A stretch of DNA of 64,000 nucleotides from Octopus vulgaris (Eukaryota). Each line of letters opens with the position of its first letter. Within the stretch, counting starts at the first letter, position 1. Shown here piece after piece: positions 826-60,189 of this stretch. The position numbers and the translations under genes are program-made. The notes below the pieces were generated by a model. It was not told the DNA's origin and searched no databases. It saw only the letters and a list, made by a program, of their open reading frames with translations. The stretch lies in NCBI GenBank assembly GCA_951406725.2, contig OX597830.1, positions 2,294,001 to 2,358,000 on the forward strand. The letters are read 5' to 3'.

Positions 826-2499
826 CTTGGGTTCGTCAGTCGTTTTTCACTCATAGACAGAGAAAAAATTGACATAATTCTATTAGCTAGAAAAACCATA
901 ATAGAATTCGACGGTAGACTCTGAACCAGATCCGATACCCCCGACAACTTCGATGTGGCTATGGGCTCGAGCGATTCAGCTCAGGTGACTGACTTGGTCG
1001 GGGCCTACCTGCTCAAGAAGCTTTTCTCCGAGGTACCGGATCTTCAGGGGGGTCTATACAGAGACGACGCTCTCTTCATATACCCCACCAACAATAGGAG
1101 TAAACTAGAAAGAATTAGGAAAAAGATCAGGCTTTTTTTCAAATCCTTCAATCTTAAACTAGAATTTATGACCAACACTAAAATAGTAAACTTCTTAGAT
1201 GTTACGTTAGATTTGAATAAGCACCTTCACTACCCGTATAGGAAACCAGAAGAAACTACCAAATACATCCATACCTCTTCCAACCATCCACCCTGTATAA
1301 TTAGCACCACGGTCCAAGCCATCTCAGACAGACTGACAAAACTATCCTCTAATAGAGAAATTTTCAATAATCATGCACAACACTACAACCAGGCTCTCTA
1401 TAGTGCCGGGTATAACCAGAGAATATCATATGTAGACCACCCGGGAACGTCCGTCGGCCATAAGACTCCCAATTATAATCGAACTCAGCACTCAACTCAC
1501 ACTAGAGATAATTCTAATTTAAACTCCAAACAACGTATAGGAAATAGGCGAACTAATAGAACAGCACACAATAGTAACCCTCCCGACGAGAACAATATAG
1601 ATCCTATTAGGAGAAATAGAAGGGATAATAGTAGATTACGCAAATATATATGGTTCAACATACCTTTCAACTTAGCAGTTAGGGGTAAGTTATGTAAGAG
1701 AATATTCTCTATAATTTCCAACAACTTCCCACCCACCCACAAGTATAGAAGTATCTTCTCCAACAAAACTATTAGGATTTCCTACTCTACCCTGCCCAAC
1801 ATGAGCTGCCTCATAGCTAAACATAACTATATTAATATTAGAACAGCTAGATCAAGAACAAACCATAGCGACCAACAGAACCCCCCTCACCTAGACAGTA
1901 GACAATATAACCAGACTGACAGCCATACTACCCAAACAGTTAGTAATAACACCCGCCAACACAACAGAGGAAATGCTACACCCATCAACAACCAGGAGGA
2001 TACCAACGCCCCCACTCGTATTGCAACACCTCCGCCTGGGATTAGCAGCACACGACCGAATAATGCAATGCAATGCAACTGCAGATGTGCATCAGAGTGC
2101 CCGCTGCAGGGCGCATGTAGGGCGATAAACGTAATATACTCATGTGAGGTGAGTACTCAGTTTAACACACTCACCTATATTGGTTGCTCAACCTCCTGGA
2201 AATCCAGATACTACAACCACCGGTCCTCGATGAAACACAGACATAAGGCTAACAGCACCTCCCTCTCTAAAAGAATTTGGGAATTAAAAGACAAATGCAT
2301 AGGCTTCAAACTCAGATGGTCCATCATCGGATCAGCTGCACCTTATTTAAATAATAGAGCAGGATGCCAACTATGCTGTGTAGAACTCCTGAACATCTTG
2401 AAATTCAAAGACAAACACAATCTTATTAACAAAAGGTCAGAGTTCAAACCATCCTGTATACATAAACTTATTAATACTTTCAAATACTACAATGCTTAG
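826..2499 (+). pseudogene. PLE reverse transcriptase (C-terminal half), Cys-rich knuckle and GIY-YIG endonuclease
   Basis: Motifs FDVAMGSSDSAQV, GLYRDD, VNFLDV, PYRKP..YIHTSSNHPP, IWFNIPF..SYSTLPN, CNCRCASECPLQGAC, NVIY..YIG..RYYNH and CQLC..LINKRSE. An in-frame TGA at 922-924 joins ORF 724-924 to ORF 955-2499. Confidence 0.9.
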
Positions 2500-4219
2500 G
2501 TCTTATACCAACTCCCCCATGCAATTTCCTCCCACCCGGTGCAACCTGTCGGCTCCAGCACATCCCGCTTTCCTATATGTGCGTGTGTATGTGTGTGTGT
2601 GTGTGTGCGTATGTATGTGCACATACGTGTACGTATGTGTACATATACATATATATACACATGTGCGTGTGTGTGTGTGTGTGTGTGGGTGTGTGTATGT
2701 GCATATACGGTTCCCTGCATTTTCCCCCTACATATACAAATTTTGTCTCCCATATATGACTTCTTTTCCCTAAATATTTCTTCTCCTACACCCATATCCT
2801 CCCTATGTAGTCTCTTTAATTCCCTTTACAAAATTATATTTTTATCTTATTTTATTTTATTTTTATCCTACTTCCATTTATTTTTATTTTTAATTTTATT
2901 TTTACTTTTATTCTACTTCCATTTATTCTCATTTTCATTTTCATCCCTTACCTTAACTCTTATAATTTTTATAATTCTTATACTTCATTTCTAACTATTA
3001 CATTGTATTTCTTATTTTATACTGTATTTTTTTATTTCTAATCTTTACCCTTACCCTCATTCTTACCCCTAACTTATCGCTTTACACCTCTATATATGTT
3101 TATTTACTTACCTATGGATCCATCTTTTGAATATACGAACGTCCGCGTACGTGTGTATACGCATACATACATATGCACGCACGTATATGTACATGCATAC
3201 CTCGATATCTTATAGCTATACCCATGTGCGCGTGTGTCTCTCTGTGTGTGTATGTGAGTGTATATGTGCACGCACATACGGACACACAGCCGTGTGTGCG
3301 TGCGCGTATTGACATGAGTACGGGATTCTTTACTTACGTTCTTATACACATCCTTTAATATCTTATACCTGGACCTAGAGGCGTGGGCATATACGTGTAT
3401 GTATGTAGTGATGGGCGCGCGTATATACATGTGAGCGTGTACGCGCGTAATGTCCGTGTATATATGCGGATATTCCGGTGTATGTATGTGTGTGTACGCG
3501 CGTGCGTGTGGGTGCGTGTGGGTTTACGTACGTGTTTACACGCGAGTGCGTGTGTATGCTTATATGCTTGGAGGCGTATATGTACGCGTGTATGTGGGTG
3601 TATGTATCCATGATGATATGTATGTACTAGAAGTCCATTTAATTCAGGGAACCAGATTAAATGCTCATCAGCTCTGATTTACAACGCATTAAGTCCCCAG
3701 ACGAAACTGTTGATTTACTGTTGATTTACTGACAATTCTACAACTAAATTTTATCAATCTCCTGACCACCATGCTTGGTCCGTAACCTCTATACATCCCT
3801 TATCTTTACATTCTTTTACACTTTTATCATGGTTTTATCAGATTTTTTAACTTTTATTTCTATTTCTATTTTTACTTTATAACCTTATGCCTTTACATTT
3901 ATTTACATTTCTTTATATTTCTTTACAACTCTTTATATCTTTATCCTCTACATTTTTATATTATTCTATACTTACACTTTTTTACACATTTTTTATCCCT
4001 CGTCCCGAACTCTCGCCCCTCCATCTTCACCTCTATATATGTATTTATTTATTTACATTACCTCAACATCCATTTTTCCTCATTCTACATTGAGAGAAGA
4101 AAGAGATGGACGCTTCAATTCTATGCTGCTGCCGCATTATGTCGTACGTGAATGAGAGGATTTGCATCCCCAACCAAGAATTTTTGATGTAACACATGTC
4201 CTTGCGGAAGCTGTTGTGC

Positions 4220-4297
4220 GCGGCTGAAGAAGGCCACAGACATACATTATGCATTGTTATAAATCTGTCTAATAAAGGCCCGAAACATATGTACCGC
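4220..4297 (+). ncRNA. Minimal type I hammerhead ribozyme with extended stem II
   Basis: gcgg-CTGAAGA-aGGCC..GGCCc-GAAA-C-ATAT-G-TA-ccgc. Stem I gcgg/ccgc, intact core, palindromic stem III (ACATATGT), GUA cleavage triplet. Confidence 0.8.
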
Positions 4298-4335
4298 TGA
4301 ATCCTTCGCATCATGTTTTTATTTTATTTTGATCA

Positions 4336-10025: not shown

Positions 10026-10118
10026 AGTGAAACCAAGTAGCAACACCAAATGGCGGTGCCCCAGCATGGCCACAGCTCATAAGCTGAAACTAGAATCAAT
10101 CAATCAATCAATCAATCA

Positions 10119-10311
10119 TATAATGTAAATTATATATATGTGTGTGTATATATATGTATATATATATATATGTGTATATTATATATATATGTATATATAT
10201 GTATATATATATGTATATATATATATATATGCATATATATGTATATATATGCATATATATGTATATATATATATATTTATATATATGTGTATATATATTT
10301 ATATAAATGTG

Positions 10312-10342
<31 letters not shown>

Positions 10343-10390
10343 GTGTATATATATATGTATATATATAGGTATATATATGTATATATATAT
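10119..10390. repeat. (TA/TG)n degenerate microsatellite
   Basis: Read directly from the sequence. Confidence 0.9.
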
Positions 10391-10608
10391 ATACTACAAA
10401 ATTAGAGAATGGAGAAACATACTTAAATCAATAAAACATCAACTATCCGATGATACTCAATCCATACTTTAATACACCATTACATAGGAGTAAAGGCAAT
10501 ATATAAAATGAAATGAGATATACAGTAATAGTAAAAGTAAAAGTAAAAGTAAAAAGATAAAGAGATATAAGTAAAAAATTACAAATACAATATGCAAATA
10601 AATCAAAA

Positions 10609-10715
10609 CTGACAGCTGTTTCGGCAGTGAGGACAGTCATACCTCATTTAACCTATAAGCCATAAAGGCAGGTATAAATGAGGCATTAACAAAGATGCCC
10701 ACGGCCTCTTCAGAG
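10609..10715 (-). ncRNA. Hammerhead ribozyme with long stem II (left arm of palindrome)
   Basis: Reverse complement of 11622-11729. Confidence 0.65.
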
Positions 10716-11057
10716 AATTAAATTAAATTTGTTATAATAGTGAAAAATATTATATAATCATATACATATAAATATAAAAATATAAAAAAGTAAAATATAA
10801 AAACTTATACATCATAATGCTACACTTGTATAATATAATACATATTTGTACAAAAAGGAAGGTAACCAGAACAAAATAAAACAAAATATATAACAGTGTA
10901 TATATAATATTAATAAGTACCGATATCATACATATTTAGCTAATAGTTTTTTTTATAAAAAAAGGGGCTAACACATATGGAGATGAAAAATAATAATAAT
11001 TAAATCCGTGGTACAGTTCATAAAATTCTAAAGCTATAAAAGTTAATAAAAATTACT

Positions 11058-11091
<34 letters not shown>

Positions 11092-11247
11092 GTAATAATA
11101 ATAAAAAATAATAAAAATAGATACAGTTAAGTTATCACCAAGTCCATCCTTCCAAGATCGAAATAACTATAGTTATTTCGATCTTGGAAGGATGGACTTG
11201 GTGATAACTTAACTGTATCTATTTTTATTATTTTTTATTATTATTAC

Positions 11248-11281
<34 letters not shown>

Positions 11282-11621
11282 AGTAATTTTTATTAACTTT
11301 TATAGCTTTAGAATTTTATGAACTGTACCACGGATTTAATTATTATTATTTTTCATCTCCATATGTGTTAGCCCTTTTTTATAAAAAAAACTATTAGCTA
11401 AATATGTATGATATCGGTACTTATTAATATTATATATACACTGTTATATATTTTGTTTTATTTTGTTCTGGTTACCTTCCTTTTTGTACAAATATGTATT
11501 ATATTATACAAGTGTAGCATTATGATGTATAAGTTTTTATATTTTACTTTTTTATATTTTTATATTTATATGTATATGATTATATAATATTTTTCACTAT
11601 TATAACAAATTTAATTTAATT

Positions 11622-11729
11622 CTCTGAAGAGGCCGTGGGGCATCTTTGTTAATGCCTCATTTATACCTGCCTTTATGGCTTATAGGTTAAATGAGGTATG
11701 ACTGTCCTCACTGCCGAAACAGCTGTCAG
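11622..11729 (+). ncRNA. Hammerhead ribozyme with long stem II (right arm of palindrome)
   Basis: ct-CTGAAGA-GGC[~80 nt hairpin including tgcctcattta/taaatgaggta]GCC-GAAA-C-AGCT-G-TC-ag. Palindromic stem III; stem I is weak. Confidence 0.7.
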
Positions 11730-12139
11730 TTTTGATTTATTTGCATATTGTATTTGTAATTTTTTACTTAAATCTCTTTATCTTTTTACTTTTACTTTTA
11801 CTTTTACTATTACTGTATATCTCATTTCATTTTATATATTGCCTTTACTCCTATGTAATGGTGTATTAAAGTATGGATTGAGTATCATCGGATAGTTGAT
11901 GTTTTATTGATTTAAGTATGTTTCTCCATTCTCTAATTTTGTAGTATTAATTTACGGTAATATTATTACCCTTACCCATTTAATACAATAGATGAACTGA
12001 TTGCTTGACAATTTCTAACATCTATGTATTAATTTTTGTTGGGTACCTATCTAGCAGTATATTGGATATATATTATCCCATGGTGGGTTGAATTTTCAAC
12101 CCCTATCTCATTTTATAACCTATATATATATATATATAC

Positions 12140-13320
12140 GTATATAAAGGAAAAGTTTATGAAAATAAACAAAAGACTAAGGCAGGTGGTGTACAAACAA
12201 ACAGATGTATTAGTATAGCACTCAAGAATAGAAAAAGTCTTTTACGTTTCGAGCCTACGCTCTTCTACAGAAAGGGACACAGAAAAAAACAAGGAGAGAA
12301 ACAAGGAGTGAAAAAAAATGTATGCAGTAACTAACGATCTATCATGGCGTCTGACTTTGGACAGAATGGTCAGACGGGAGAGGGGAAGTAGGGCAGATGA
12401 CAAGGTCAAGATGACCTCCAATAAGAAAGGTGCGTGTGAGTATAAGAGAGTATGTATGTTCATGTGAAAGAGGGCTGGAGGTCTGGACGTGTGTGTGTAT
12501 GTATGTGTGGGTGTAAAGATGTGGGGATGGGTGGTGTGTTGTGATGTGTAATGTTGTTTGGTGTAGTGTAGTGTGGTGTGATGTAGGGAGGTGGGGTGGG
12601 GGAGGCGAGATTGTGGAAAGCACAGGTGGGCTGTGGGTTTGGCTTGGAGTTGGGGTAGAGTGGGGGTTGTGGGTAGGTAGAGGGTGGGGTTAGAGTTGAG
12701 GTATGTGGGGAGGGGTGTGGGATAGGGGTGATGTATGTAGGGAGGGTGGGGGGATGGGAAGGATAGGGAAGGTGGAGTAGTTGGGTTTATGGGGGGAAGG
12801 TGGGTATGTGAGGAGAGAGAGGAGGGGGGAAGAGAGGGGGATGAGGAGGGAGGAGGGAAGAGAGAAGAGGAGAGTGAGGGAGCAGAGAGAAAGAGAGAAG
12901 GGAGAAGAGAGTAGAGGAGAAGAGGGAAAGAGAGTAGAGGGAAAAGAGAGAAGAAAAGGGAAAGAGAGATATAGGAGTGAAGAGAAGTAGGAGTTGGGGA
13001 GGAGGTTAGATGAAAAGGCGGGGAGAGTTGAGCTCAAATGGCGTAAAAGAGCGAAGAGAGAAGATTAATCCCTGTTCACGGCGCAAGCAGGAGTCCGGAT
13101 GGCCTCTATGCAAGGATAATCCGAACACAGACAGGTGTTGCAAGGAGTGACCGGTGGAGCGGAAATGGCGTGAGACTGGAGTGTCATTGTTTCGGAGGTG
13201 TTCCGCAAACCAGTCAGCCAAGCAGCGTCCCGTTTGTCTGATGTACAGGGAATGGCAGAGAGAGCAGGAGATGCAATAGATGATATTGCTGGAGGTTCAG
13301 GTGAAGGAGTCGATGATGCG
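12140..13320 (-). mobile_element. 3' fragment of a second PLE family (GIY-YIG end, pyrimidine-rich UTR, pLTR)
   Basis: Minus strand SSNIIYCISCSLCHSLYIRQTGRCLADWFAEH..PVSRHF..H..RREQGLIFSL..ELN. HHR-like motif at 12239-12274. Confidence 0.85.
12239..12274 (-). ncRNA. Ultra-minimal hammerhead-like motif (A6U core variant)
   Basis: cttt-CTGTAGA-A-GAGC-gtag-GCTC-GAAA-CG-TA-aaag. ACGT palindromic stem III. Confidence 0.55.
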
Positions 13321-14962: not shown

Positions 14963-15192
14963 ACATTGAATAATATGGGTTCAAAAAAAGTTTTTTACAT
15001 AATTGTCACATTGAATATTATGCATTCAAAAAAGTTTTTTACATAATTGTCACATTGGATATTATGGGTTCAAAAAAAGTTTTTTACATAATTGTCACAT
15101 TGAATATTATGCATTCAAAAAAGTTTTTTACATAATTGTCACATTGGATATTATGAATTCAAAAATGTTTTTTTATACATAATTGTCACATT
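14963..15192. repeat. Minisatellite, ~5 copies of a 44-46 bp unit
   Basis: Unit acattgaatattatg(ggt/cat)tcaaaaaagttttttacataattgtc. Confidence 0.9.
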
Positions 15193-15877
15193 ATTTGGGA
15201 AAATTTGGCAGAAAAGGATAAAACAAATATATTATTGGGAATTGGTTGCGTTAATTATTGGTTGTCGCAAATTGTCACATTACATGTATATATATACAAT
15301 CTTTGGTATATATATACAGCGTTTTGACAGCAAAAATTAAAATGGCTTTTTTGTACATCTCAGAATATTTTAAGTATGTTTTTACTGACCTGTCAGTATT
15401 AGCAGAAAGGCTGAACTGAAGTGATAGGTTAATATGTAGTTATAAATGAGACACTTATAAAAATATCCCAAGGTCTCTTCAGAGATTATGAAGAACAAAC
15501 TAAATTAAATATGAAAATCAGAGGAGGTACACCCATACAAGAGCGGGTACATACCCATAATATATAATATAATATACACATACATATGAGTGCATATATC
15601 CATACTCCTATAGATATATATATACATATATATAATATAATAATAATATACAGCAATATACATACATATGTTCTATATTCAAGGTTACAGTTGGTCACAA
15701 CAATATATTAGAATATTACAATATAGAAACAATATAGAAACATACACATATCTATATTCAAATGCAGACATACAAAGTCAAGAATTCCTTATATTAAGTT
15801 ACATTAATATTACTATCATTACTATTACCATTGCTACATATATACATATATATATATGCATATATATATATATATAT

Positions 15878-17106: not shown

Positions 17107-17162
17107 ACATACAGACCACATAGAGACAAACATTAGTACACACACACCAACATATATACATT

Positions 17163-17196
<34 letters not shown>

Positions 17197-17253
17197 AATG
17201 TATATATGTTGGTGTGTGTGTGTACTAATGTTTGTCTCTATGTGTCTGTATGT
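17107..17253. repeat. Inverted repeat (~60 bp arms) centred on (TA)n
   Basis: acatacagaccacatagagacaaacattagtacacac..tttaca-(TA)n-tgtaaa..gtgtgtactaatgtttgtctctatgtgtctgtatgt. Confidence 0.9.
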
Positions 17254-19980: not shown

Positions 19981-21566
19981 TTTGTTGTGCAAGATTTTTT
20001 ATGTGAAGTCGTGTGTTGAAACAGATATTGTTATATTTTGGAATGGTCATTTTGCCAGTTTAGCCAAATTCTTCATTCGTACTATGCCAAACCTATAGTC
20101 TCAAAATACTTGATCCACTGGAACTCAGCCATTGCGGACAATGCCAAATTCAATATTTTGATGGCAGACCTCGTCAGAATAATGAGAAATGTGTCACGCA
20201 TGTGCGAGCCTATAGAGTTAAAGAGACACATACAATATTTCATTCACCGCATGCAGTTCTCAGGTTACAGCCATAAAGAAAGGATCAGAGTATACAAAGG
20301 AGCCATGAAGAAATTTGATAATATATTATGTAATGATAGGAATGGTATTTGCCCACTCTATAGGAACAAGTCATGGAACACTATAGAAAGGACAAAAAAG
20401 AAAATAGGTAAGGCCAACTCTTGGTATGATAGCCATAAATACCAGAATGTCATGTTCGTTGACACCACCCCTGGAGGTGAACTGGCGTACCGCTTTAGAA
20501 GGACCCTAGACAAACTTAAGTTAAGGATTAAGGTTGTTGAAAAGCCAGGCAACCCTATCAAATCTATAATCGGTAGAACCTACCCTTTTAGTAGAACCCC
20601 CAGTATGGATAAGTACTGTACTGTATGTAGATTTAGCCCACAAACTGTAAAGCCAGAAATGTAGTCTATAGTATAAGATGTATAGAGGGACGATGCAGTA
20701 ACAAGACAACGACATAAGTAGGGGAAACGGCAAGAAGCATAGGAGAGCGGGTAAATGAGCATTGGGGAGAACTCAAGGAAGGTAAAAGCTCATCGATTCT
20801 GTACCAACATTCCAAACAGGAACACGGGGGATCAATGAACAACATAGAAATTAAAATATTGTCCACACATAGAACAGATGCAACAATCAGACAAATTACA
20901 AAAGCTACAAACATACTAGAAAATAAACCTAGCCTGAATAGGAAACTAGAATGGAACACTAGCACACACCACAACATATGACGATAGAGGATCCCCATAA
21001 ACTGGTTACAATATAAACAAAACCGAAAACATAATAAATAAATAAACAAATAGAAATAGATAACTATATAAGTTTTTTTTTAATTTAAAAGATTTTTTAT
21101 TTATTTATTATTATTATTACTAGTATTGTTGTTATACATACATACATACAAGCATATGTAATGATAATAATGGGTGGATGTAAACACATGAACAAAATAA
21201 GAATAAACAAAAACAACAACAAGAACAAATTACATGAACGTATATAAACAGAAGATACAAATATTACAGGCATCCCCCCACCCCACACACGCTAAATAAA
21301 CATAGATGCACATAGAGATATAAGCATGTGCAAATGAAGACATACAATAGAAATACAAAATGGCTGACGGTTAGTAAGGAGAGACACAAATACGAAAGAA
21401 GAAAACAAAGGACCACTGATGCAGTCACAGGAGTGTGACGAAAGAACTCTGGCCGAAATAAGAATAAGATTAATGTAAAAAATAAATAACACTGAAGCAA
21501 AGTAACACCAAATATATAGTGTGTGTGTTTTTATTGGCTAAACTGGCAAAATGACCATTCCGAAAT

Positions 21567-21572
<6 letters not shown>
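19981..21572 (+). mobile_element. 5'-truncated PLE (third family) with short inverted pLTR end at its 5' junction
   Basis: 19981-20067 is an inverted terminal segment. 20068 onward encodes the RT thumb (YYAKP..LIHWNSA..RMQFSGY) and GIY-YIG (NVVY..VGETARS..EH..LNRKLEW), followed by the pLTR. Homologous to 45935-48240. Confidence 0.9.
21411..21454 (+). ncRNA. Hammerhead-like motif, CUGAUGCA core variant
   Basis: gacca-CTGATGCA-GTCACA-ggag-TGTGAC-GAAA-GAAC-TC-tggcc. Confidence 0.6.
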
Positions 21573-39246: not shown

Positions 39247-40573
39247 GCGGACAGAGCTGTACTTTACCGAGTTGGTACTCCTTTTCAGTTGCATAGACTG
39301 GAACAATATGAAATGAAGTTTCTTGTTTAAGAACAGAATGCAATGCCCATCCAGGAATTGAACTCACAGCCTTATTATCACGAGTTCAACAGCCCAATTA
39401 CTAAGACACACAAGTTCTGTCCACTCTCATTGGAAAAAGGAGGACTGACGAAAGACAAGCAGAGAATTTTGTCTGTTGTTTAGTCAAAAGAGAAGGCAGT
39501 GTCACATGACCTTCTGCAGGGCCTCCAAGACTACTAAGTGGAAGGGAGGGAGAGAAACCAGGCAAGAATATTTGTGACAGAAGAGATTGCACCTGAGGCA
39601 CCAAAGATGACAGGTGATAGAACTAAATAGGGCACTCGATTAAATCTCTCACCTGTGTAGGCCATGGTGGGATTTCAACTTGGAATGCAATAAATCAGAA
39701 CAAACACAGCCAGGCTTCCTGTTTGATGTTCTTATAATCTCACTGGTTCCCCACCCTGGGGCTGCATCTATGTTTTATGAACCCATGAGAAATAAAGCTG
39801 ACTTCAGCAATATTTGAACTCTGGATGTTGAGGATTAGAACAAATGCTGTGAAGCATTTTGTCTGACACTCTGCCGACTTTACCGATTCATCCTTATGTG
39901 AAGGAGAGAGTGAATGAGTGATGTGATTGGTGGAGAGAGGATTTGTGATGAGGGAATAATGTGAGAGAGAGACAGACAGACAGACAGACAGAGAATGCTG
40001 AATGGTAGAAGTGAAAATACTGTGAGTGGAACAAGGGTAATAGACATGAGTGATGGAGAGTGGGATTAATGGATGTGAATAATGACTAAAAGATGAATGT
40101 ATAATGATAAAGAGAGTTATGACAGGCAATAAAAGGGATGGTGAGGGTGAGTAAATATGGACAGATCTCTCACTTCCTCTCTCTCTCTCTCTCTAGCTCT
40201 CTCTTTCCCTCCTTCCCTTTCTTTTCTCTTTCGCCTTCCCTCCCTCTCTCTTTCTCCACTCTCTCTTCCCATATTCCTCTGTCTATCTCTCTCTTTCCCT
40301 CCCTCCCTTTCTTTTTCTCTCTCTCCCTCCCTCCCTCCCTCGCTCTCTCTCTGCAAAATAAATCAAATAAAATCTTGACTAGTTTCACCAAGTCATTACC
40401 AGCTCATCAGGAGAATTATAATAATAATAATGAAATTATTGTATACAGTGCTCAGGTGCACCACAACTTGTCAGAAAGTGCGTATAGAGTATATGCAGTA
40501 ATGTACAAATGTCTGGAAAGCGAACAATGCATGAGTCAGATACATGCTTGTGTGTGTATGGAGGGGAGAAAAA

Positions 40574-43318
40574 TCAGGTGTAGTGTTGGCAAATCTCAGA
40601 AAGCATGGAAGCTTTGAAGGATGCAGTGCTCCAACAACTGACAACTGATGCCAGCAGTTTGTTCCATACTTCAGCAACTCTCAGCATGAAAAAATGTTTC
40701 CTAAAGTCATGGGAGCTGTGCTGTTTTTTGACTTTGTAAATATGTCCACGGGTGTTAGATGGGTGGAGTTTGAAAAGGTGCTCAGAGTTATTGTTTTTAC
40801 GATGGTTGATAATTTTATGGGTGTCTTCCAAGTCAGCTGCCAGACGTCGGAGTTTCAATGTGTCCATGCCCAGGGAAGTAAGGCGTTCAGAATATGGCAA
40901 ATGCCTGATGGAGGGTATTCTTTTGGTTGCATGTCGCTGAACGGCTTCCAGATGATTGATATCCTGCGCAAGATAGGGGTTCCAGACCGGTGATGCAAAT
41001 TCCAGGTGAGGTCTTACCATAGCTATATAAAGCTGCTGATAGATAGTCAGAGAGCGGCTCACAAAGGATTTGGTGAGTGATGCCAAGACACCCTCAGACA
41101 TCTTGACAATTTTAGCGATGTGTTTTGTCCAACGCAAATCACTGTCGACAATAACACCCAGGTCACGTTCACATGAAGACTTTTTGAGATTAGTGTTGTG
41201 GAGGGAGTATGTGGACGCTGGGTTTCTCATCCCAAAATCCATGGTGGTACATTTGTCCACAGCCAGCTTGAGTTGCCAGCCCATGATCCACTGCTGCATT
41301 GTGTCCAGGTCTGCTTGCAATAGAGATCTATAGAGTACAGGATCTGGCCTCTTTATTTCGAGGTACAGCTTGATGTCATCTGCATATTTCAGCACTGTGG
41401 CATTCTTTAAGTTGGCATCTATGCCATTAACATATGCAACAAATATGCAACAAATCTGCTGTGGTACAGTAGATGTCATCTCATAGGGTGAAGAGTGCTG
41501 TCCTAGAACTGTGACAACCTCTTTTCGGCCGAAAATAAAGGACTTCAACCAGTTATAGAGTTCGTCTCTTACGCCCAACGCAGAGAGCTTCACCATAAGT
41601 CTTTTGTGTGGCACAGAGTTAAAAGCCTTAGCAAAGTCCAGGTAAACAACATCCACCCAGGATCTGCGATCAGTGATTTGGGTAACGTCCTCAAGAAACT
41701 CGATGAGTTGATTACAGCAGCTGGAGTTAGGAATAACTCCAAATTGTGACGGCTGGATGAGGCTGTGAGACTTCCAGAAATTCCAGAGGGTTTCTCTGAT
41801 ACAGGATTCCATCAGTTTGGCGATGCAGCTAGTAAGACTAACGGGGCGATAGTTGACAGGTGATGTGCAGTCACCTTTTTTGAACAGAGGGATAACACTG
41901 GCAGTTTTCCACTGTTCTGGAGTAACACCATTGTCAAGACAGAATTGGAAGAATAGAGAAAGTTGGCTTAGAAGAGAGTACCCACCGCGTTTGAGAAGTA
42001 GGTATGTAACACCATCGAGACCAGGAGAGGCATAGTTGCATTTATTCTTGAGGTGGCGTTGTAGCATTGCTGGTGTAAATTGCATAGTAAATATAGAGTC
42101 CGATGTCAGTGGTGATGAAGATGGAACATTTTGGTCTTCGACAGTAAAGATGCCGGCATAGCATCCAGCAATGGTTTCTGCACATTCTTCGGGATTGCCA
42201 GTAATCTGTCCTGTGTGGGGATTGCGAAGGGGACCAACAGGAGAGTGGGGTCTCTGCTTTGAGTGCACATACTTCCAGAACACTTTGCTGTCAGGGTTAG
42301 TTGCAATGCATTGTTCAAATTCAAGCACTGCCTTTTTTGTCACCTGTTTGAGGTGGTTGGCTGACCTATTGCGCTTTTTCCTGTTGATCTCTGATTTGTG
42401 CAATTTGTATTCCTGTTCAGCATTACGGCGTTCTTTCCTGGCAAGTCGGACTGCTGCAGTCTCCCAAATTGCACTATTGGGTGTTTTTTTGTGTTTACGT
42501 CGTACTGATGCTGCACATGCCGCCCATATTGAATTCAGAATGTTCTGGAGTATAGTCTCCAGATCTCCAGAGGCATAAAATTTGAGCCAGTTTGGGTGTT
42601 GCAGCTCAGTACAATAAGAGCTCCAGTCTGCTTTATTCCAGTCAAAGCGGGTAATCTGAAGATGGTTGTGTTTTTTGTTACAACCAATCAGAGACAAGTC
42701 GGCCATGATTATGGAATGATCAGAGTCACCCAAAGGTTCTTCGGTAGCGACACTAATGATTGTTTCAGGAGAAGCGGTAAGTAGCAGATCCAAAGTGTTG
42801 TTACTCCTTGTGGGGGAGGTAACGACTTGGGACCAATTTGAATTCAGCACCAGTTCAAGGAAATCGTCTGTACTTTGCGGCCAACGGAAGGCCTCCCAGT
42901 CAATCTCAGGGAAATTGAAGTCACCCATAATATAAACATACTCGGCTGTTTTCATGGCAGCAGCTCTGAGGATATCAAAAAGCTGTGTGTCTTGACGATA
43001 ATTTGGGGGGCTGTAAATGACTCCAAGCAGAAGTGTTGACATGGTCATGTGTATATTGCAGAAAAATACTTCCTGCTGAGATTGGTTCAAATCATCACAG
43101 GGGATTGCCGACAGACTTGATCGAACATAAATCATCACACCCCCTCCACGGCGATTAATGCGGTCTTTGCGGAACAGGTTGTAGCCGGCTATGCTGAAAA
43201 CTCCATCACAGAGTGCAGAGTGTGCCCATGTTTCCGTGACTGTGATGAAATCTGGGTTGATACTTTTGATGTAGGAGTCAAAAAGATGTACCTTGTTGCA
43301 TGAACTACGGGCATTCAA
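40574..43318 (-). CDS. LINE ORF2 APE-RT (914 aa, open, but RT QG motif disrupted)
   Basis: VTETW, RGGGV, MGDFN, LDLLL, SDH; YRPVSLTS, YLDFAKAFNSV, YADD, DLG. STVPQQICCI replaces SGVPQGSVLGPLL. Confidence 0.9.
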   Translation of the reverse strand: MNARSSCNKVHLFDSYIKSINPDFITVTETWAHSALCDGVFSIAGYNLFRKDRINRRGGGVMIYVRSSLSAIPCDDLNQSQQEVFFCNIHMTMSTLLLGVIYSPPNYRQDTQLFDILRAAAMKTAEYVYIMGDFNFPEIDWEAFRWPQSTDDFLELVLNSNWSQVVTSPTRSNNTLDLLLTASPETIISVATEEPLGDSDHSIIMADLSLIGCNKKHNHLQITRFDWNKADWSSYCTELQHPNWLKFYASGDLETILQNILNSIWAACAASVRRKHKKTPNSAIWETAAVRLARKERRNAEQEYKLHKSEINRKKRNRSANHLKQVTKKAVLEFEQCIATNPDSKVFWKYVHSKQRPHSPVGPLRNPHTGQITGNPEECAETIAGCYAGIFTVEDQNVPSSSPLTSDSIFTMQFTPAMLQRHLKNKCNYASPGLDGVTYLLLKRGGYSLLSQLSLFFQFCLDNGVTPEQWKTASVIPLFKKGDCTSPVNYRPVSLTSCIAKLMESCIRETLWNFWKSHSLIQPSQFGVIPNSSCCNQLIEFLEDVTQITDRRSWVDVVYLDFAKAFNSVPHKRLMVKLSALGVRDELYNWLKSFIFGRKEVVTVLGQHSSPYEMTSTVPQQICCIFVAYVNGIDANLKNATVLKYADDIKLYLEIKRPDPVLYRSLLQADLDTMQQWIMGWQLKLAVDKCTTMDFGMRNPASTYSLHNTNLKKSSCERDLGVIVDSDLRWTKHIAKIVKMSEGVLASLTKSFVSRSLTIYQQLYIAMVRPHLEFASPVWNPYLAQDINHLEAVQRHATKRIPSIRHLPYSERLTSLGMDTLKLRRLAADLEDTHKIINHRKNNNSEHLFKLHPSNTRGHIYKVKKQHSSHDFRKHFFMLRVAEVWNKLLASVVSCWSTASFKASMLSEICQHYT

Positions 43319-43383
43319 GGACAGCAGTTTGTATTTGGATTTCAGATGGCGAGGATATACAGGGGATGGCTGATTGTTCTTGG

Positions 43384-43875
43384 TTAGTTTCCCAAGATTT
43401 TTGTATTGCCAGTTGTTGTTGTGGGTGTAGTCTGCTCAGTCCAACTGGCATCCTTTATCCACGACTCACCAGACTTGACAAATTTCCAGATTTGCTCATC
43501 ATTGCGGAGGCTAAAACTCTCGTGTGGCACAGAGTTGTGATTTAGGGAAGCTACAGATCTTAGCTTTGGGCGTACATCAGGTGGTAGGCCAGGACGTATT
43601 CTAAAGTTGATTAGGTTGTCACGCCAAGCTCTATCAGCAGCCAGATGGAATGACCGCGCCTCAGTAAAGCCCATAAAAGTCAGCCTGATCAGCCTGGGTT
43701 TGGATCCCGGTCGGCCAAGGCGGGAAGCACTTTTTAGAGGGACACAGCTGAGATCCCTAACTGTGTTTCCAATGAATGCCTGCAGATCTACCACATCTTC
43801 CGGCACTCTGATGGCTATTACTTCATGAGTGGCTGGTATTGATTTCATTATATCTACAGACAGACAGACAGACAA
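43384..43875 (-). CDS. Putative LINE ORF1 (C-terminal part)
   Basis: RLGRPGSKPRLIRLTF resembles the RLG..RP motif of CR1/L2 ORF1 and lies directly upstream of ORF2. Confidence 0.6.
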   Translation of the reverse strand: MSVCLSVDIMKSIPATHEVIAIRVPEDVVDLQAFIGNTVRDLSCVPLKSASRLGRPGSKPRLIRLTFMGFTEARSFHLAADRAWRDNLINFRIRPGLPPDVRPKLRSVASLNHNSVPHESFSLRNDEQIWKFVKSGESWIKDASWTEQTTPTTTTGNTKILGN

Positions 43876-45875: not shown

Positions 45876-46100
45876 CATATATGTATATATACATATATAT
45901 ATTTATGTACATAAAAATATTTATATACATTTATATATTTGTGCAAGATTTTTTACGTGAAGTCCTGTGTTGAAACAGATATTGTTATATTTCGGAATGG
46001 TCATTTTGCCAATTTAGCCAATAAAAACACACGCACTATATATTTGGTGTTACTTTGCTTCAGTGTTATTTATTTTTTACATTAATCTTAATCATATTTC

Positions 46101-46144
46101 GACCAGAGTTCTTTCGTCACACTCCTGTGACTGCATCAGTGGTC
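46101..46144 (-). ncRNA. Hammerhead-like motif, CUGAUGCA variant, perfect 5 bp stem I
   Basis: gacca-CTGATGCA-GTCACA-ggag-TGTGAC-GAAA-GAAC-TC-tggtc. Confidence 0.65.
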
Positions 46145-49100
46145 CTTTGTTTTCTTCTTTCGTATTTGTGTCTCTCCTTACTAACCGTCAGCCATTTTGT
46201 ATTTCTATTGTATGTCTTCATTTGCACATGCTTATATCTCTATGTGCATCTATGTTTATTTAGTGTGTGTGGGGTGGGGGGATGCCTGTAATATTTGTAT
46301 CTTCTGTTTATATATGTTCATGTAATTTGTTTTTGTTGTTGTTGTTTTTGTTTATTCTTATTTTGTTCATGTGTTTACATCCACTTATTATTATCATTAC
46401 ATATGCTTGTATGTATGTATGTATAACAACAATACTAGTAATAATAATAATAAATAAATAAAAACTTATATAGTTATTTATTTCTATTCGTTTATTTATC
46501 TGTGTATTCATTATGTTTTCGGGATCCTCTACCGTCATATGTTGTAGTTTCCTATTCAGGCTAGGTTTATTTTCTGTTATGTGCGTAGCTTCTGTAATTT
46601 GTCTGATTGTTGCATCTGTTCTATGTCTGGACAATATTTTAATTTCGGCGTGTTGGTACAGAATCGATGAGCTTTTACCTTCCTTGTGTTCTCTCCAATG
46701 TCATTTACCCGCTCTCCTATGCTTCTTGCCGTTTCCCCTACTTATGTCGTTGTCTTGTTACTGCATCGTCCCTCTATACATCTTATACTATAGACTACAT
46801 TTCTGGCTTCACAGTTTGTTTGTGGGCTAAATCTACATACAGTACAGTACTTATCCGTACTGGGGGTTCTACTAAAAGGATAGGTTCTACCAAATATAGA
46901 TTTGATAGGGTTGCCTGGCTTTTCAACAACCTTAATCCTTAGCTTAAGTTTGTCTAGGGTCCTTCTAAAGTGGTACGCCAGTTCACCTCCAGGGATGGTG
47001 TCAACGAACATGACACTCTAGTATTTATGGCTATCATACCAAGAGTTGGCCTTCACTATTTTCTTTTTTGTCCTTTCTATAGTGTTCCATGACTTGTTCC
47101 TATAGAGTGGACAAATCTCATTCCTATCATTACATAATATATTATCAAATTACTTCATGGCTCCTTTGTATACTCTGATCCTTTCTTTATGGCTGTAACC
47201 TGAGAACTGCATGCGGTGAATGAAATATTGTATGTGTTTCTTTAACTCTGTAGGCTCGCACATGCGTGACACATTTCTCATTATTCTGACGAGGTCTGCC
47301 ATCAAAATATTGAATTTGGCATTGTCCGCAATGGCTGAGTTCCAGTGGATCAAGTATTTTGAGGCCATAGGTTTGGCATAGTACGATTGAAGGATTTGGG
47401 TTTTATTATTCACAATTTCTAGCCAGAGTTCGGTGTCTAGTACTGGTAGTCTATGGTTGGGGTGTTTAGTGGGGTAGTCTATTGTGACCTTAATACTCTG
47501 GTAGATGGATTTAGCAATTTGCTGGATGCTCTCCATAGTATTAGTTTCTATTACTATATCAACATTACTCTCTTGTGGGGGTGCCTTTACTACTATGTTG
47601 ATATCATCAACATAGCGAGAGTACATGTTTACGAGTATGGAGTTCTGTGTTAGTCATTCTTTAAGCCTTCTGTCCCAACATACCAGGAAAAGGTTGGCCA
47701 CATCTCCAGCGATACTAATGCCGATGGCTGCCCCCTCGTCCTTGGCATATATTTTATTGTTAAATGTGTGGCCTTTTAGGGTAACTCTTATACTAGCTCC
47801 TAGTGCATGTGCGATCATTTTCTTTACCTGATGGACATTTGCGGGGCTCCGTATGGCTCTGGTCCATCTGCTCCATCTCTCTGTATGGGTCTTCCTAGCC
47901 ACAGAAGTAATTGTGGGTGGTCTACCTCTTAAACGTCTACTGGGGCAGAAACTACTAAGATTATGTTTATCTAGGTATTCGTTGTCATAAGTCAGTCTAA
48001 GTAGGAGGCCCAGTTCCTCTGTGTTGACATTGCGGAACTCCACCTTGCTCTCGTTGATCATTTCCACGCACTTCACCGCAAAATCCACGTCGATCGATGG
48101 GTATAGGGATACCACATCCATGCTACCCACCAGACATCCTGTCAGGTCGCAAGTGTTGTCACAGTCATTGATCCTGCTGAGGCGATCTTCTGTGCTGTCA
48201 CAAACATCAGGTGACATCCGGATTATAGGGCGTATGATCATTGAGAGGAAGTAGGAGATTCTGCAGTTGCTAGCGATATTGCAGGTTTAATCCCGAGTTG
48301 TTGGGCCTCTGTCTTATTCTGTCTCTGTCTCTTAGTGTATAGTCCTAAAATCTGTCTAAGTTTGGTCCTAGCTATAGTGAACTGTGCTTCCATATGGTCA
48401 TTAGCATGTCTTGGGATGTAGACCCTTTTGTTGAAGGGTAATGTTGTTGGATAAATCCGGCTCATGTTATAAGATTTGTCACATATGTTGAAGAATTGAG
48501 TGTCAAAGGGGTGGGTATACATGTTAATGGCCCTTCTAGGGTTATCTTCATTATTGTTACTACTATTTCTGTCGTTACTGTTCCCATCATCAGCCTCACT
48601 ATTATTATTGCCACCATTACCACTAACATTATTACCACTACTACTGTTATTACTATTACCACCACAACTATCACTACTACCATCATTACTACTTCTACTG
48701 TTACCACCACCACTACTACTACCACTATTATTGTTATTACCGTTATTCTTATCATTGCCATTATTGCTATCATTCTGATTATCGCTACACACATAACAGA
48801 AAATAAACCTAGCCTGAATAGGAAACTAGAATGGAGCTCTAACACACACCACAACATATGACGGTAGAGGATCCCGAAAACATAATGAATACACAGATAA
48901 ATAAACGAATAGAAATAAATAACTATATAAGTTTTTATTTATTTATTATTATTATTACTAGTATTGTTGTTATACATACATACATACAAGCATATGTAAT
49001 GATAATAATAAGTGGATGTAAACATATGAACAAAATAATAAACAAAAACAACAACAACAAAAACAAATTACATGAACTTATATAAACAGAAGATACAAAT

Positions 49101-49248
49101 ATTACAGGCATCCCCCCACCCCACACACACTAAATAAACATAGATGCACATAGAGATATAAGCATGCGCAAATGAAGACATACAATAGAAATACAAAATG
49201 GCTGACGGTTAGTAAGGAGAGACACAAATACGAAAGAAGAAAACAAAG

Positions 49249-49292
49249 GACCACTGATGCAGTCACAGGAGTGTGACGAAAGAACTCTGGCC
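49249..49292 (+). ncRNA. Hammerhead-like motif in inverted pLTR
   Basis: Same sequence as 21411-21454. Confidence 0.6.
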
Positions 49293-49406
49293 GAAATAAG
49301 ATTAAGATTAATGTAAAAAATAAATAACACTGAAGCAAAGTAACACCAAATATATAGTGCGTGTGCTTTTATTGGCTAAACTGGCAAAATGACCATTCCG
49401 AAATAT

Positions 49407-49491
<85 letters not shown>

Positions 49492-54607: not shown

Positions 54608-56741
54608 GAGAACAAAAATGCTCCGCAAATATAACATCACAGAAAAAGATTTGCCGGAGATAAAAGAAAAGCTGAAGCAAGATATCCTTGCCAAAGCTCA
54701 AAGGATCCGCCGGTACGAGAAACGCCAACGCTTATTTGAACAGAACAAAAAGTTCAACTCCAACCCCAAAAAGTTCTACCAAGAACTGGGAAAAAATAAA
54801 ATAGAAGTCACTGCAGCACCAACGGCAGAAGAATTGGAAGAATTCTGGAGAGAAACATGGTCGGCGATCGAACAGCCAAAAAAAGGAGTATCAAAATAAC
54901 AAACTCGGCATCTGAACAACTTTGGACCCCCATAACAACTGAAGAGGTCACCCAGGCACTGCAAAAACTAAGAAACTGGAAGGCACCTGGGCATGACAAG
55001 ATCCCCAACTTCTGGTTGAAATATCTAACAGGAATGCACAAAAAGCTGGCTGAAAACTTTAACAGCATACTAGCAGAGCCAGAGACAATGCCCGAATGGC
55101 TCACGAAGGGGAAAACCATCTTAATTCCCAAATCAAATGAAACAACAAAACCAGAAAACTACAGACCAATAACCTGCCTCCCTACTATGTTCAAGGCATT
55201 GACTGCAGTGATATCACAAAGGCTGAACAAGCACCTGGACGAAAACAAACTGTTCCCAGAAGTGCAGAAAGGATGCCGCAAAGGCTCATATGGCTGTAAA
55301 GATCAACTAATGATTAATAAAGCTGTAACTGAAGACAGCCACAGAAAGAAGAAAGGCCTCAGTATGGCCTGGATTGACTACAAAAAGGCGTTTGATAGCA
55401 TCCCCCACACATGGATCCTCGAAACACTAGCCATTAACAAAGTAGCACCAACAATCATAAAATTCATAGAGCACTCTATGAATAAATGGCAAACAGTCCT
55501 ACACCTCCAAACAAAAGAGGGACTCATGAAAAATACTGACAGGATCTGGGATGCATCACTCAAAATCTGACATAGAAAGACTATATATACAATGTATAGA
55601 AGGTGGTAGAGGCCTTATACAACTGGAAAACTACTATAAAATAACCACCATAGGACTGCAAAAATACCTACTTCAGAAGGAAGGAAAACTGATCCAGATA
55701 GCAGCAAAACACGAGCAAAACAAAAAACTGTTCTTGGTATTTAAGGAAGCTGACAAATACAAACAAAAAATCATACCACCTAATAAACACGAAGAAGAAG
55801 AAGAAGAAGATGAAGAAGCAACAAAAGCTATAAAACAAATGAAATCCAAACTAAAAATAGAACAGCAACGAGCCATGATAAAACGATGGCAAGAAAAGCC
55901 CCTTCATGGTAAATACTGCACTAAACTAAACGCAAAAGAAATAGACAAAGAAAAATCCCAGCAATGGTTGAGAAGCTCAGGACTCAAAGCAGAAACAGAG
56001 GGATTTTTAATTGCAGCACAAGACCAAAGCCTCCCCACCAGAAATTACCAAAAACATGTAATGAAAAGAAATATTACAAGTAACTGCAGAATATGTGGAG
56101 ATGGACAAGAAACAATAAATCATATTATCTCTAGCTGCCCAGTCCTGGCTAAGAAGGAATATATTCACAGACATGACAGAGTTGGAACCTACATACATTG
56201 GAAGCTATGCCAACATTATGGAATAACAACAGAAAAAAGATGGTATAGGCACACACCAGAAAATGTCACAGAAAACGAGAAAGCAACCATACTCTGGGAT
56301 ATGCCGATACATACAGATAGAAAAATTAAGGCCAACAGACCAGATATAGTTGTCAGAGATCATGAAGAAAAAAAGTGCTTTCTAATTGATGTATCAATAC
56401 CGGCTGATGACAATGTGTCTCTAAAAGAAATGGAGAAACTCTCAAAATACAAAGACCTGGAAATAGAGGTAACTAGAATGTGGAACCTGAAAACAGAAAC
56501 AATTCCTATCATAGTAGGTGCATTAGGCATGATAAAAAAATATTCAGACAAATACATAACAAAAACACCAGGACTTACAAACACATACAGAAAATTGCAC
56601 TACTAGGCACTGCACACATCCTACGCAGAACACTTTCCATACAATAACCATCAGAGCATCACAACAAATCACAGCACATACCCAAGGCACACAGAGCTGC
56701 ACTCGGTAGTGAAGTGAAAGGACGCTATAAAAATAAAACTA

Positions 56742-56744
<3 letters not shown>
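54608..56744 (+). mobile_element. R4/Dong-type RLE LINE copy 1 (5'-truncated, ~590 bp internal RT deletion)
   Basis: NWKAPGHD, YRPITCL, QKGC, IDYKKAFDS; CRICG..ETINHIISSC, RHD, RPDI..LIDVSIP..KLSKY. Ends actactg-(AAT)n. Confidence 0.92.
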
Positions 56745-56806
<62 letters not shown>

Positions 56807-56874
56807 TAATAATAATAATAGTAATGATAATAATAATAATAATAATGATAATAATAATAATAATAATAATAATG

Positions 56875-56926
<52 letters not shown>

Positions 56927-56934
56927 TAATAATA

Positions 56935-57010
<76 letters not shown>

Positions 57011-57011
57011 T
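56745..57011. repeat. (TAA)n array
   Basis: Read directly from the sequence. Confidence 0.95.
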
Positions 57012-59049
57012 AGATCAACTAATGATTAATAAAGCCGTAACTGAAGACAGCCACAGAAAGAAGAAAGGCCTCAGTATGACCTGGATTGACTACAAAAAGG
57101 CGTTTGATAGCATCCCCCACACATGGATCCTCGAAACACTAGCCATTAACAAAGTAGCACCAACAATCATAAAATTCATAGAGCACTCTATGAATAAATG
57201 GCAAACAGTCCTACACCTCCAAACAAAAGAGGGACTCATGAAAGCCAAAGACATCCCCATTAGAAGAGGAATATTCCTGGGAGACATGCTCTCTCCACTC
57301 CTTTTCTGCTTGGCACTGTCACCTCTATCTGATATGCTAAATAGAACTGGATGCGGATATAAATGTTACGGCAAAACGATCAGCCACCTTTTATATATGG
57401 ATGACCTAAAACTATACGCTGCAAATGACAAACAGCTGGAAACACTATTAAAGACAGTTCATGGATTTACCAAAGAAATAGATATGAAATTTGGATTAGA
57501 AAAATGCGCCAAAGTAACCATGAAAAGAGGAAAACTAGTTAAGAGTAACAATATCACACTAGATAAAACCAATGAAATAAAAGAATTAGACCAAAGCCAA
57601 AATTACAAATACTTAGGAATCCATGAACTAGATAAGACACAACACACACAAATGAAAGAGAAAATAAAAAAAGAATATTATAGACGAGTTAGATCAATAC
57701 TAAAAACAGAGCTCAATGCTAAAAACAAGATAATAGGTATCAACACTTTTGCTGTCCCAGTTATAAGTTACAGCTACAATATCCTTAACTGGACACAAAA
57801 TGAACTGTCCAAAATAGATAGTAAAACAAGAAAAATACTGACAGGATCTAGGATGCATCACCCAAAATCTGACATAGAAAGACTATATATACAACGTATA
57901 GAAGGTGGTAGAGGCCTTATACAGCTGGAAATCTACTATAAAATAACCACCATAGGACTGCAAAAATACCTACTTCAGAAGGAAGGAAAACTGATCCAGA
58001 TAGCAGCAAAACACAAGCAAAACAAAAATCTGTTCTCAGTATTTAAGGAAGCTGACAAATACAAACAAGAAATCATACCACCTAATAAACACGAAGAAGA
58101 AGAAGATGATGAAGAACAACAAAAGCTATAAAACAAATGAAATCCAAACTAAAAATAGAACAGCAACGAACCATGATAAAACGATGGCAAGAAAAGCCCC
58201 TTCATAGTAAATACTGGACTAAACTAAACGCAAAAGCAATAGACAAAGAAAAATCCCAGCAATGGTTGAGAAGCTCAGGACTCAAAGCAGAAACAGGGGG
58301 ATTTTTAATTGCAGCACAAGACCAAAGCCTCCCCACCTGAAATTACCAAAAACATGTAATGAAAAGAAATATTACAAGTAACTGCAGAATATGTGGAGAT
58401 GGACAAGAAACAATAAATCATATTATCTCTAGCTGCCCAGTCCTGGCTAAGAAGGAATATATTCACAGACATGACAGAGTTGGAACTTACATACATTGGA
58501 AGCTATGCCAACATTATGGAATAACAACAGAAAAAAGATGGTATAGGCACACACCAGAAAATGTCACAGAAAACGAGAAAGCAACCATACTCTGGGATAT
58601 GCCGATACACACAGATAGAAAAATTAAGGCCAACAGACCAGATATAGTTGTCAGAGATCATGAAGAAAACAAATGCTTTCTAATTGATGTATCAATACCG
58701 GCTGATGACAACGTGTCTCTAAAAGAAATGGAGATACTCTCAAAATACAAAGACCTGGAAATAGAGGTAACTAGAATGTGGAATCTGAAAACAGAAACAA
58801 TTCCTATCATAGTAGGTGCATTATGCATGATAAAAAAATATTCAGACAAATACATAACAAAAACACCAGGAATTACAAACACATATAACATACAGAAAAT
58901 TGCACTACTAGGCACTGCACACATCCTACGCAGAACACTTTCCATACAATAACCATCAGAGCATCACAACAAATCACAGCACATACCCAAGGCACACAGA
59001 GCTGTGCTCGGTAGTGAAGTGAAAGCACGCTATAAAAATAAAACTACTG
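57012..59049 (+). mobile_element. R4/Dong-type RLE LINE copy 2 (5'-truncated; frameshift and stop)
   Basis: GIFLGDMLSPLLF, HLLYMDD, YKYLG, CCHC and PD-D endonuclease. Same 3' end as copy 1. Confidence 0.92.
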
Positions 59050-59077
59050 AATAATAATAATATTAATAATAATAATG

Positions 59078-59135
<58 letters not shown>

Positions 59136-59259
59136 TAATACTGATGATAATAATAGTAATAATAATTGTAATAATAATAATAATAATAATAAGAATAATA
59201 ATAATAATGATAATAATAGTAATAATAATAATAATAATAAGAAGAAGAAGAAGAAGAAG
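59050..59259. repeat. (TAA)n-(AAG)n array
   Basis: Read directly from the sequence. Confidence 0.95.
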
Positions 59260-60189
59260 GCTGGACGTGTTTTTCGCTGCTCTGACCAACCCAGCATGAC
59301 AACGGAAAAACCGGAAGATCTACTGTTTTCTGTGAGTAATTTGAATTTCCCTCAAAATAAGCTAAGGAACTTACATATCTACAGCTTTGCACATACAAGC
59401 GAACACCTAACAAAGAATTTAGAATCATAAATATCTCCAATTTTATGTGAACAGTCTGCCTTTTATTGTAACAACACAATTAAATGCACGATAAAAAAAC
59501 TATGGAAGTAAGCGTATACCAATATATATACACTGCACAACTACAAAAACTGTAAACCACAGCATAACTTTTCAAAAGAAAAGAAAAATTTCTGAGCATT
59601 CGAAAATGTAAACATTCTTCCCTTTGCAAAAATCTTATTTTTTTTTCCAAATGGACATCTCAAGAATACTTAAAAACTTTAATATATTACCCAAACACGT
59701 AAACACGTAAACTTTTATTGCAACAACACAATTGAACTCAGAAATTTTTTTAAAAAAATCATCCAGTGAATATCAGAAAATATGCCTGTGGGAATATACA
59801 TATACATATGTGTATGGGTATATATATATAGCTGGATTGCTTCTCAAGATAACGCTGGTACTAGTAAACAGGTTTGACCTCTCCCTGACCCAAAATGTCC
59901 TTTGTCCACCATCTGATGAATCTATTTATAGAACATGACCACTTGACCATGGCGATGGTGATGGTGATGGGAATAATAATAATAATAATAAGCTACAGCT
60001 GTGACTACACATAAAACAATGTCATTGATGATGATGATGATGATGATGACGGTGATGATGATAATTCTTTTTTTTTTTTTTTTTTCTCGTATTTTACTCT
60101 CATTTTTTCGAACTAATACAGGCAGAGTGAACCTTTCATAGGTTTAAAAAAAAAAGTGAATGAATAAATAAAAAGAAGAAGGGAAAACT

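Follow-up and report, generated by a model that had tools for sequence, protein, structure and literature searches.

A near-perfect inverted repeat of 1.56 kb, whose two arms meet without a spacer, lies in the window (the whole 64-kb stretch of Octopus vulgaris DNA that was analyzed). We consider it likely that the locus is a single young insertion of a Penelope-like element (PLE), whether the second arm arose by fold-back of a cDNA or by priming at two ends. The element appears to be very young, 5'-truncated, non-coding and hammerhead-bearing, and to have entered a (TA)n tract, with both arms stemming from one integration event. This reading is supported by the type of the ribozyme, the head-to-head polarity of the arms, the (TA)n target and two other PLE copies in the window that are alike in layout. 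On the same grounds a previous sequence-only reading, which had proposed a PLE-type insertion with an inverted 5'-truncated copy, is supported. It had also called the element ORF-less, and indeed no coding match was obtained in the arms.

The geometry of the palindrome was determined by aligning the reverse complement of 10391-11169 with 11170-11947. Among 780 aligned columns four differed, and these fell into three events: a 2-nt indel that spans a C run and the T run beside it (left 10963-10964), a 1-nt indel within a G run (right 11637) and a single T/A substitution (10567/11771). The earlier description of near-perfect arms that differ mainly by homopolymer indels plus one T/A change is therefore accurate, and so is the zero spacer, since the alignment places the centre between CTA and TAG. 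From this point 205 exact pairs run outward until the first arm difference is reached. The (TAT)10 tract has equal length in the left and right arms. Folding of the 1557-nt palindrome as RNA gave -1202 kcal/mol, and all 774 pairs spanned the centre. The whole window is free of N, and the next-longest exact short-spacer palindrome in it, microsatellites aside, has arms of only 36 bp. Thus, a chance origin of the palindrome is excluded. With its centre intact and one substitution in 779 bp, the palindrome would seem to have originated very recently, to have undergone arm-to-arm conversion, or to be an artefact. The coordinates of all parts of the locus are collected in Table 1.

Table 1. Parts of the palindromic locus and of its flanks, with window positions
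Feature	Position	Strand	Remarks
(AATC)n tail of upstream LINE	10094-10118		LINE ORF 8085-10025 matches RVT_1
Left target site, degenerate (TA)n microsatellite	10131..10393	.	Found by TRF; follows the (AATC)n tail of the upstream LINE
Left arm, inverted copy	10391..11169	-	Lacks the outer 173 bp; joined to (TA)n via a 3-nt TAT/ATA overlap
Type I hammerhead motif, left copy	10609..10715	-	Stem II one G shorter
Centre of symmetry, spacerless	11165..11174	.	Midpoint 11169/11170
Right arm	11170..11947	+	T-rich (49% T, 23% GC), non-coding
Type I hammerhead motif, right copy	11622..11729	+	Core C3 11624, G12 11716; predicted cut after 11727
One-sided extension, 173 bp	11948..12120	+	Five predicted hairpins
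Right target site, (TA)9	12121..12138	.	Common to the 3' end of the neighbouring minus-strand element

Both flanks consist of (TA)n, as had been noted before, and the locus thereby shows the AT-rich target known from endonuclease-bearing (EN+) PLEs. At the position that matches the junction of the left arm with (TA)n, the right arm carries on into 173 unique bases. Neither a mirror image nor a second copy of these bases was found in the window. The right arm had been said to run about 170 bp further than the left. This holds for the unmirrored 173 bp as such, while their membership in the element is probable only. We take them to be the 3' end of the element, although they could possibly be host DNA instead. 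The former is favoured because the segment folds strongly (z -3.92, with 1 of 200 shuffles as strong) and ends in (TA)n. A start of an ORF, such as PLE tails hold, was considered for the 173 bp and discarded, as no ATG-started frame reaches their end. As a separate observation, the left arm stops 3 nt past a stretch (11915-11947; pyrimidine tract, CTAAT and TAG) that resembles a 3' splice acceptor, possibly by chance.

Each arm contains one hammerhead motif in which all core nucleotides are present, namely CUGAAGA, an extended stem II, GAAA, stem III and a GUC cut site. The right motif has a 2-bp stem I, an extended stem II of about 85 nt and a stem III of 2 bp capped by a palindromic loop. 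Both motifs read outward from the centre, in agreement with the sequence-only reading, and the arms are thus arranged head-to-head. When 2000 dinucleotide shuffles of the arm were scanned with a hand-written descriptor, composed after the motif had already been seen, 1 of them matched. With the same descriptor, five sites were detected in the real window, compared with none in 17 and one in 3 of the 20 block shuffles. The right hammerhead region folded better than its shuffles (z -4.24, 0 of 200), as did the left one (z -2.93, 4 of 200). When the three-stem ribozyme fold was imposed, the energy was -36.8 kcal/mol vs -42.2 kcal/mol for the free minimum, that is 5.4 kcal/mol less stable. Rfam returned no match for the whole window at the gathering score, and the 17 weak matches obtained for 10300-12200 at E<=10 included no hammerhead. 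One Rfam match, to mir-3912 (61 bits vs a cut-off of 95), was rejected since it merely reflects the perfect hairpin. Judged by their sequence, both motifs are predicted ribozymes of the minimal type I kind found in Penelope. The sense-strand type I hammerhead near the 3' end that is typical of EN+ PLEs is therefore present, albeit not detected by Rfam. Minimal PLE ribozymes have been reported to act poorly alone and are thought to work as dimers (PMC4209133) or to be assisted by protein (PMC11167929).

The assignment to PLEs was then weighed against the coding content and the relatives of the arm. A tblastn search with 77 PLE-like proteins gave only five rows at chance level for the locus (E 0.18-0.30). 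Absence of a coding remnant would be expected after a 5' truncation. In three PLE-type elements of the window, the 3' non-coding stretches measure 531, 871 and 1836 nt, so an ORF-less piece of 951 nt requires nothing beyond 5' truncation. We infer that the right arm represents the 3' UTR/pLTR of a 5'-truncated PLE. The idea that the centre encodes the last codons of a PLE ORF was dropped, as 175 of 2000 shuffles scored equally well against the C-termini from 37 of 54 proteins. A second copy of the arm was not found in the window beyond a weak relative at 15438-15485 on the minus strand. This T-rich stretch is 79% identical over 48 nt to the 5' half of the ribozyme of the arm (E 8e-6), and the extended score of the match was reached by 2 of 300 shuffles. 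It looks degenerate and is perhaps an old relative. No relatives were found in prokaryotic (searched with two ribozyme patterns), phage and plasmid sets, which are non-eukaryotic and little informative here. As neither a second copy of the element nor an autonomous partner was found, family membership rests on the architecture, which includes the inverted 5'-truncated head-to-head copy of EN+ PLEs. An inverted adjacent copy with 5' truncation, a one-sided tail of 30-40 bp and a (TA)n bias are described as standard PLE features (PMC8557442). Recently active Penelope families have been reported for Octopus vulgaris, with 30 families and 329 insertions, and the repeat library of that study may already contain the family of the palindrome (PMC13282606).

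Two copies of another PLE family in the window serve as comparators. In each, a 3' piece is inverted, (TA)n borders both ends and a tail of about 40 nt is confined to a single side. Copy A (about 19982-21572) reads as (TA)n, a short inverted 3' end with tail, a 5'-truncated copy without tail, and (TA)n. Here the short inverted arm (about 85 nt) bears the tail, the long arm has none, and the two meet through a 4-nt overlap, CCAA, that is not palindromic. Copy B (about 45938-49414, minus strand) contains RT and endonuclease interrupted by stops and frameshifts. The tail of about 40 nt lies at one (TA)n and a tail-less inverted 3' piece of 631 nt at the other; the arms differ by 8 substitutions and 2 indels. 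Low-complexity repeats are seen near its inner junction. In copies A and B, the ends that lack the tail coincide in position to within a few bases. Inspection by eye of relatives of this family revealed an RT motif that we take to be YVDD, followed by one presumably of the GIY-YIG type. When the comparator proteins were searched against Pfam, NCBIfam and PDB, none received a GIY-YIG or PLE label, and the most that emerged was a weak match of P0055 to RVT_1 (E 0.0042). The PLE label therefore rests on the order of RT and then GIY-YIG. Pairwise comparison of two PLE fragments in the window was not significant. The palindrome, copy A and copy B would be three insertions of one layout, which already help to separate fold-back from two-ended priming. 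How inverted PLE structures form has been named as an unresolved question (PMC8557442).

The window as a whole is dense in retroelements. One RT fragment is 89% identical to an Octopus vulgaris protein, and another ORF yielded 54 matches, including O. sinensis, O. bimaculoides and Argonauta. Directly to the right of the locus, another truncated element (12140-13300, minus strand) has its end in this (TA)9. A stretch encoded by it, without Pfam match, is assumed to be GIY-YIG-like, and near 12240-12270 the element contains a hammerhead-like motif whose core is non-standard. A Penelope/Poseidon-like ORF remnant of 524 aa is located at 925-4335 (plus strand), with a 3' stretch of 1.8 kb, a (TA)n end and, at 4224, a hammerhead whose stem II is long. 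Downstream of a LINE ORF with AP-endonuclease and RT (40574-43435), the region 40330-40450 (minus strand) holds a compact hammerhead-like motif at 40410. The stretch 54800-63871 is occupied by several LINE fragments that contain RT and, at the C-terminus, nuclease-like regions; long (AAT)n tracts lie between them, and a 1.44-kb duplication (55525-56959 and 57827-59258, 95%) is among them. In addition, a minisatellite with a period of 44/89 bp and about five units (14963-15192) was observed.

For the origin of the palindrome we give a slight and tentative preference to cDNA fold-back over two-ended priming. A PLE protein with RT and GIY-YIG domains, acting in trans, would nick the (TA)n at the right. 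Target-primed reverse transcription would start from the RNA 3' end (12120), proceed for about 950 nt and halt at 11170, short of the ORF. The 3' end of the cDNA would then fold back on a short self-complementary stretch and prime copying of the cDNA. After about 780 nt the new strand would jump to the left (TA)n end by a 3-nt overlap, which is proposed as the reason why the last 173 nt are missing from the left arm. Finally, host repair would open the hairpin into a head-to-head palindrome. Such a route predicts a zero spacer and head-to-head polarity, and its arbitrary stop would give the 173-nt asymmetry. The fold-back suggested by the sequence-only reading thus fits the zero spacer and the self-priming idea of PMC3846280, but copy A could not have been made by a simple fold-back. 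Its tail on the short arm and its non-palindromic CCAA junction need two priming events. With two-ended priming, which we regard as possible but doubtful, both (TA)n strands would be nicked and reverse transcription would start twice, on two RNA copies and at two start sites, of which one includes the extension and the other leaves it out. The two cDNAs would converge until a strong stop common to both halts them, and a self-complementary end would link them. That copies A and B share the position of their tail-less ends is in line with this. The PLE protein of Anolis cuts and extends both strands, two RT start sites define the tail and the protein is predicted to be a dimer; ribozyme cleavage was not required in vitro (PMC11167929). 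However, this supporting evidence comes from another family, two independent cDNAs that end at the same nucleotide require a defined stop, and 173 nt far exceeds the 30-40 nt between known start sites. It is rather unlikely, in our estimate, that a dimeric PLE protein holding two transcripts, perhaps paired via the self-complementary hammerhead stem III, primes reverse transcription from both target strands. Equally unlikely would be the corollary of two RNAs, in which the palindrome is the fully symmetric and copy A the asymmetric product of the same reaction. If the two-RNA reading were true, double target priming would explain inverted PLE structures. This proposal was not found in titles and abstract openings of papers outside subscription journals.

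An origin outside of PLE integration is improbable, be it an artefact or a DNA route. In the artefact case, a long read would have folded back on itself, or two nearly identical copies that belong to separate loci would have been wrongly joined. The zero spacer, the near identity and the identical (TAT)10 tracts are all compatible with it, as are the homopolymer indels, which account for two of the three differences between the arms. Of ONT genomic reads, about 0.55-0.6% are fold-backs, and these may be spacerless (PMC12870357). The same study describes fold-backs as almost absent from HiFi data and recurrent sites as few in ONT genomic data. Moreover, a fold-back read mirrors everything outward, yet the flanks of the palindrome differ: the left arm is preceded by a LINE tail and (TA)n, and the right arm is followed by 173 unique bp, (TA)9 and another element. 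A read artefact is therefore unlikely, and a misjoin of two loci is possible. Against an artefact also speaks that the left arm meets (TA)n with a short overlap like the comparator PLE ends. What had been put forward as a real alternative is thus weaker than stated, as a fold-back read would repeat the same flank. The DNA route was considered in two versions, which even jointly are improbable. In the first, an already inserted PLE copy would have suffered a break that was closed by folding back and by repair through microhomology at (TA)n. In the second, the symmetric stretch 10394-11944 would itself be a DNA element of the foldback/MITE-like type that duplicated a TA, and the adjoining 173 bp would be host DNA. 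A TA stands on each side of the symmetric unit, and duplication of a flanking TA is the signature of Tc1/mariner elements, but inside (TA)n such flanks are uninformative. That such events occur here is indicated by a small inverted duplication around another (TA)n (about 17107-17253, about 55 bp on each side of the tract). No other copy of the symmetric unit, as would be expected for a dispersed Tc1/mariner-type or foldback family sharing both termini, was detected within the window. Hammerheads, however, mark PLEs and not DNA transposons, the 173 bp fold like a structured RNA end, and PLEs are known to generate this layout during insertion.

The consequences of the structure were considered at the level of RNA and DNA. 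Each ribozyme motif is located about 450-560 nt inside its arm. Pairing of the sense ribozyme with the antisense copy was calculated at -236 kcal/mol vs -36.8 kcal/mol for the ribozyme fold. In this model, a read-through RNA would contain one sense and one antisense ribozyme, and the sense one would be blocked. The earlier picture of a long dsRNA flanked by ribozymes has to be given up: because the motifs sit inside the stem and the sense copy pairs with the antisense copy, the ribozymes neither flank nor release the dsRNA. If transcribed through, the locus would be a potential source of a 780-bp hairpin RNA with a blocked ribozyme. Nothing specific was found in the literature on siRNAs from PLE hairpins. 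Cruciform formation is plausible, and long spacerless palindromes are described as recombinogenic (PMC7999016). A spacerless AT-rich palindrome of 1.56 kb, if real, is thus a candidate fragile site and hairpin-RNA source, and active PLEs in octopus may seed such sites. Most likely, the palindrome has no host function.

Several known systems resemble the locus in part. The human PATRR11/17/22 palindromes (PMC1851657) are likewise AT-rich and near-perfect, and may form cruciforms in principle. They measure about 190-600 bp, compared with 1.56 kb here. Non-LTR retrozymes (bioRxiv 10.64898/2026.07.22.740005) share the non-coding nature, the type I hammerhead and the derivation from PLEs. In contrast to the single head-to-head pair described here, they consist of head-to-tail tandem units; a tandem unit covering the arm was not found, and identity with retrozymes was rejected. 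Naiad PLEs have been recorded for O. bimaculoides and O. vulgaris/sinensis in the supplement of PMC8557442, and the (TA)n preference and the inverted adjacent copies are common to both. Naiads are described there as lacking the canonical hammerhead, whereas the palindrome element has a full core, which led us to reject a Naiad identity as well. The stem III motif does not occur in the searchable text of that supplement.

The hammerhead motifs were compared with the minimal variants of D. virilis, shrimp and rotifer (PMC4209133). Shared features are the CUGANGA and GAAA core, the NUH cut site, the 2-bp helix I, a bulged helix II, U/AU-rich flanks and a small palindromic helix III fit for dimers. 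The octopus motif differs in a helix II lengthened by about 85 nt of nested hairpins, in mismatches in stem II and in the lack of an unpaired H after CUGANGA. For Schistosoma, motifs paired on opposite strands at distances of 100-700 bp have already been noted (PMC4209133). The locus also resembles canonical EN+ PLEs, namely Penelope of Drosophila virilis and Pen2-Pen6 of Adineta vaga (PMC3846280). An inverted 5'-truncated copy in head-to-head orientation, a palindrome at the junction, an extension at one end only, an AT-rich target and a hammerhead near the 3' end are found in these as well. Self-priming on the antisense strand was proposed there for the palindromes at head-to-head junctions. 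The junction palindromes named for them are 18 and 38 bp long, whereas here the whole spacerless insert of 1.56 kb is palindromic and an ORF remnant is absent. The one-sided extension of canonical PLEs measures 30-40 nt compared with 173 nt here, provided that the 173 nt belong to the element. Inverted copies and palindromic junctions are a hallmark of the class, and the layout is the published norm for PLEs and not a new structure (PMC3846280, PMC8557442). The single locus is in this respect ordinary; it is unusually long and perfect, and its value lies in being a clean and young example.
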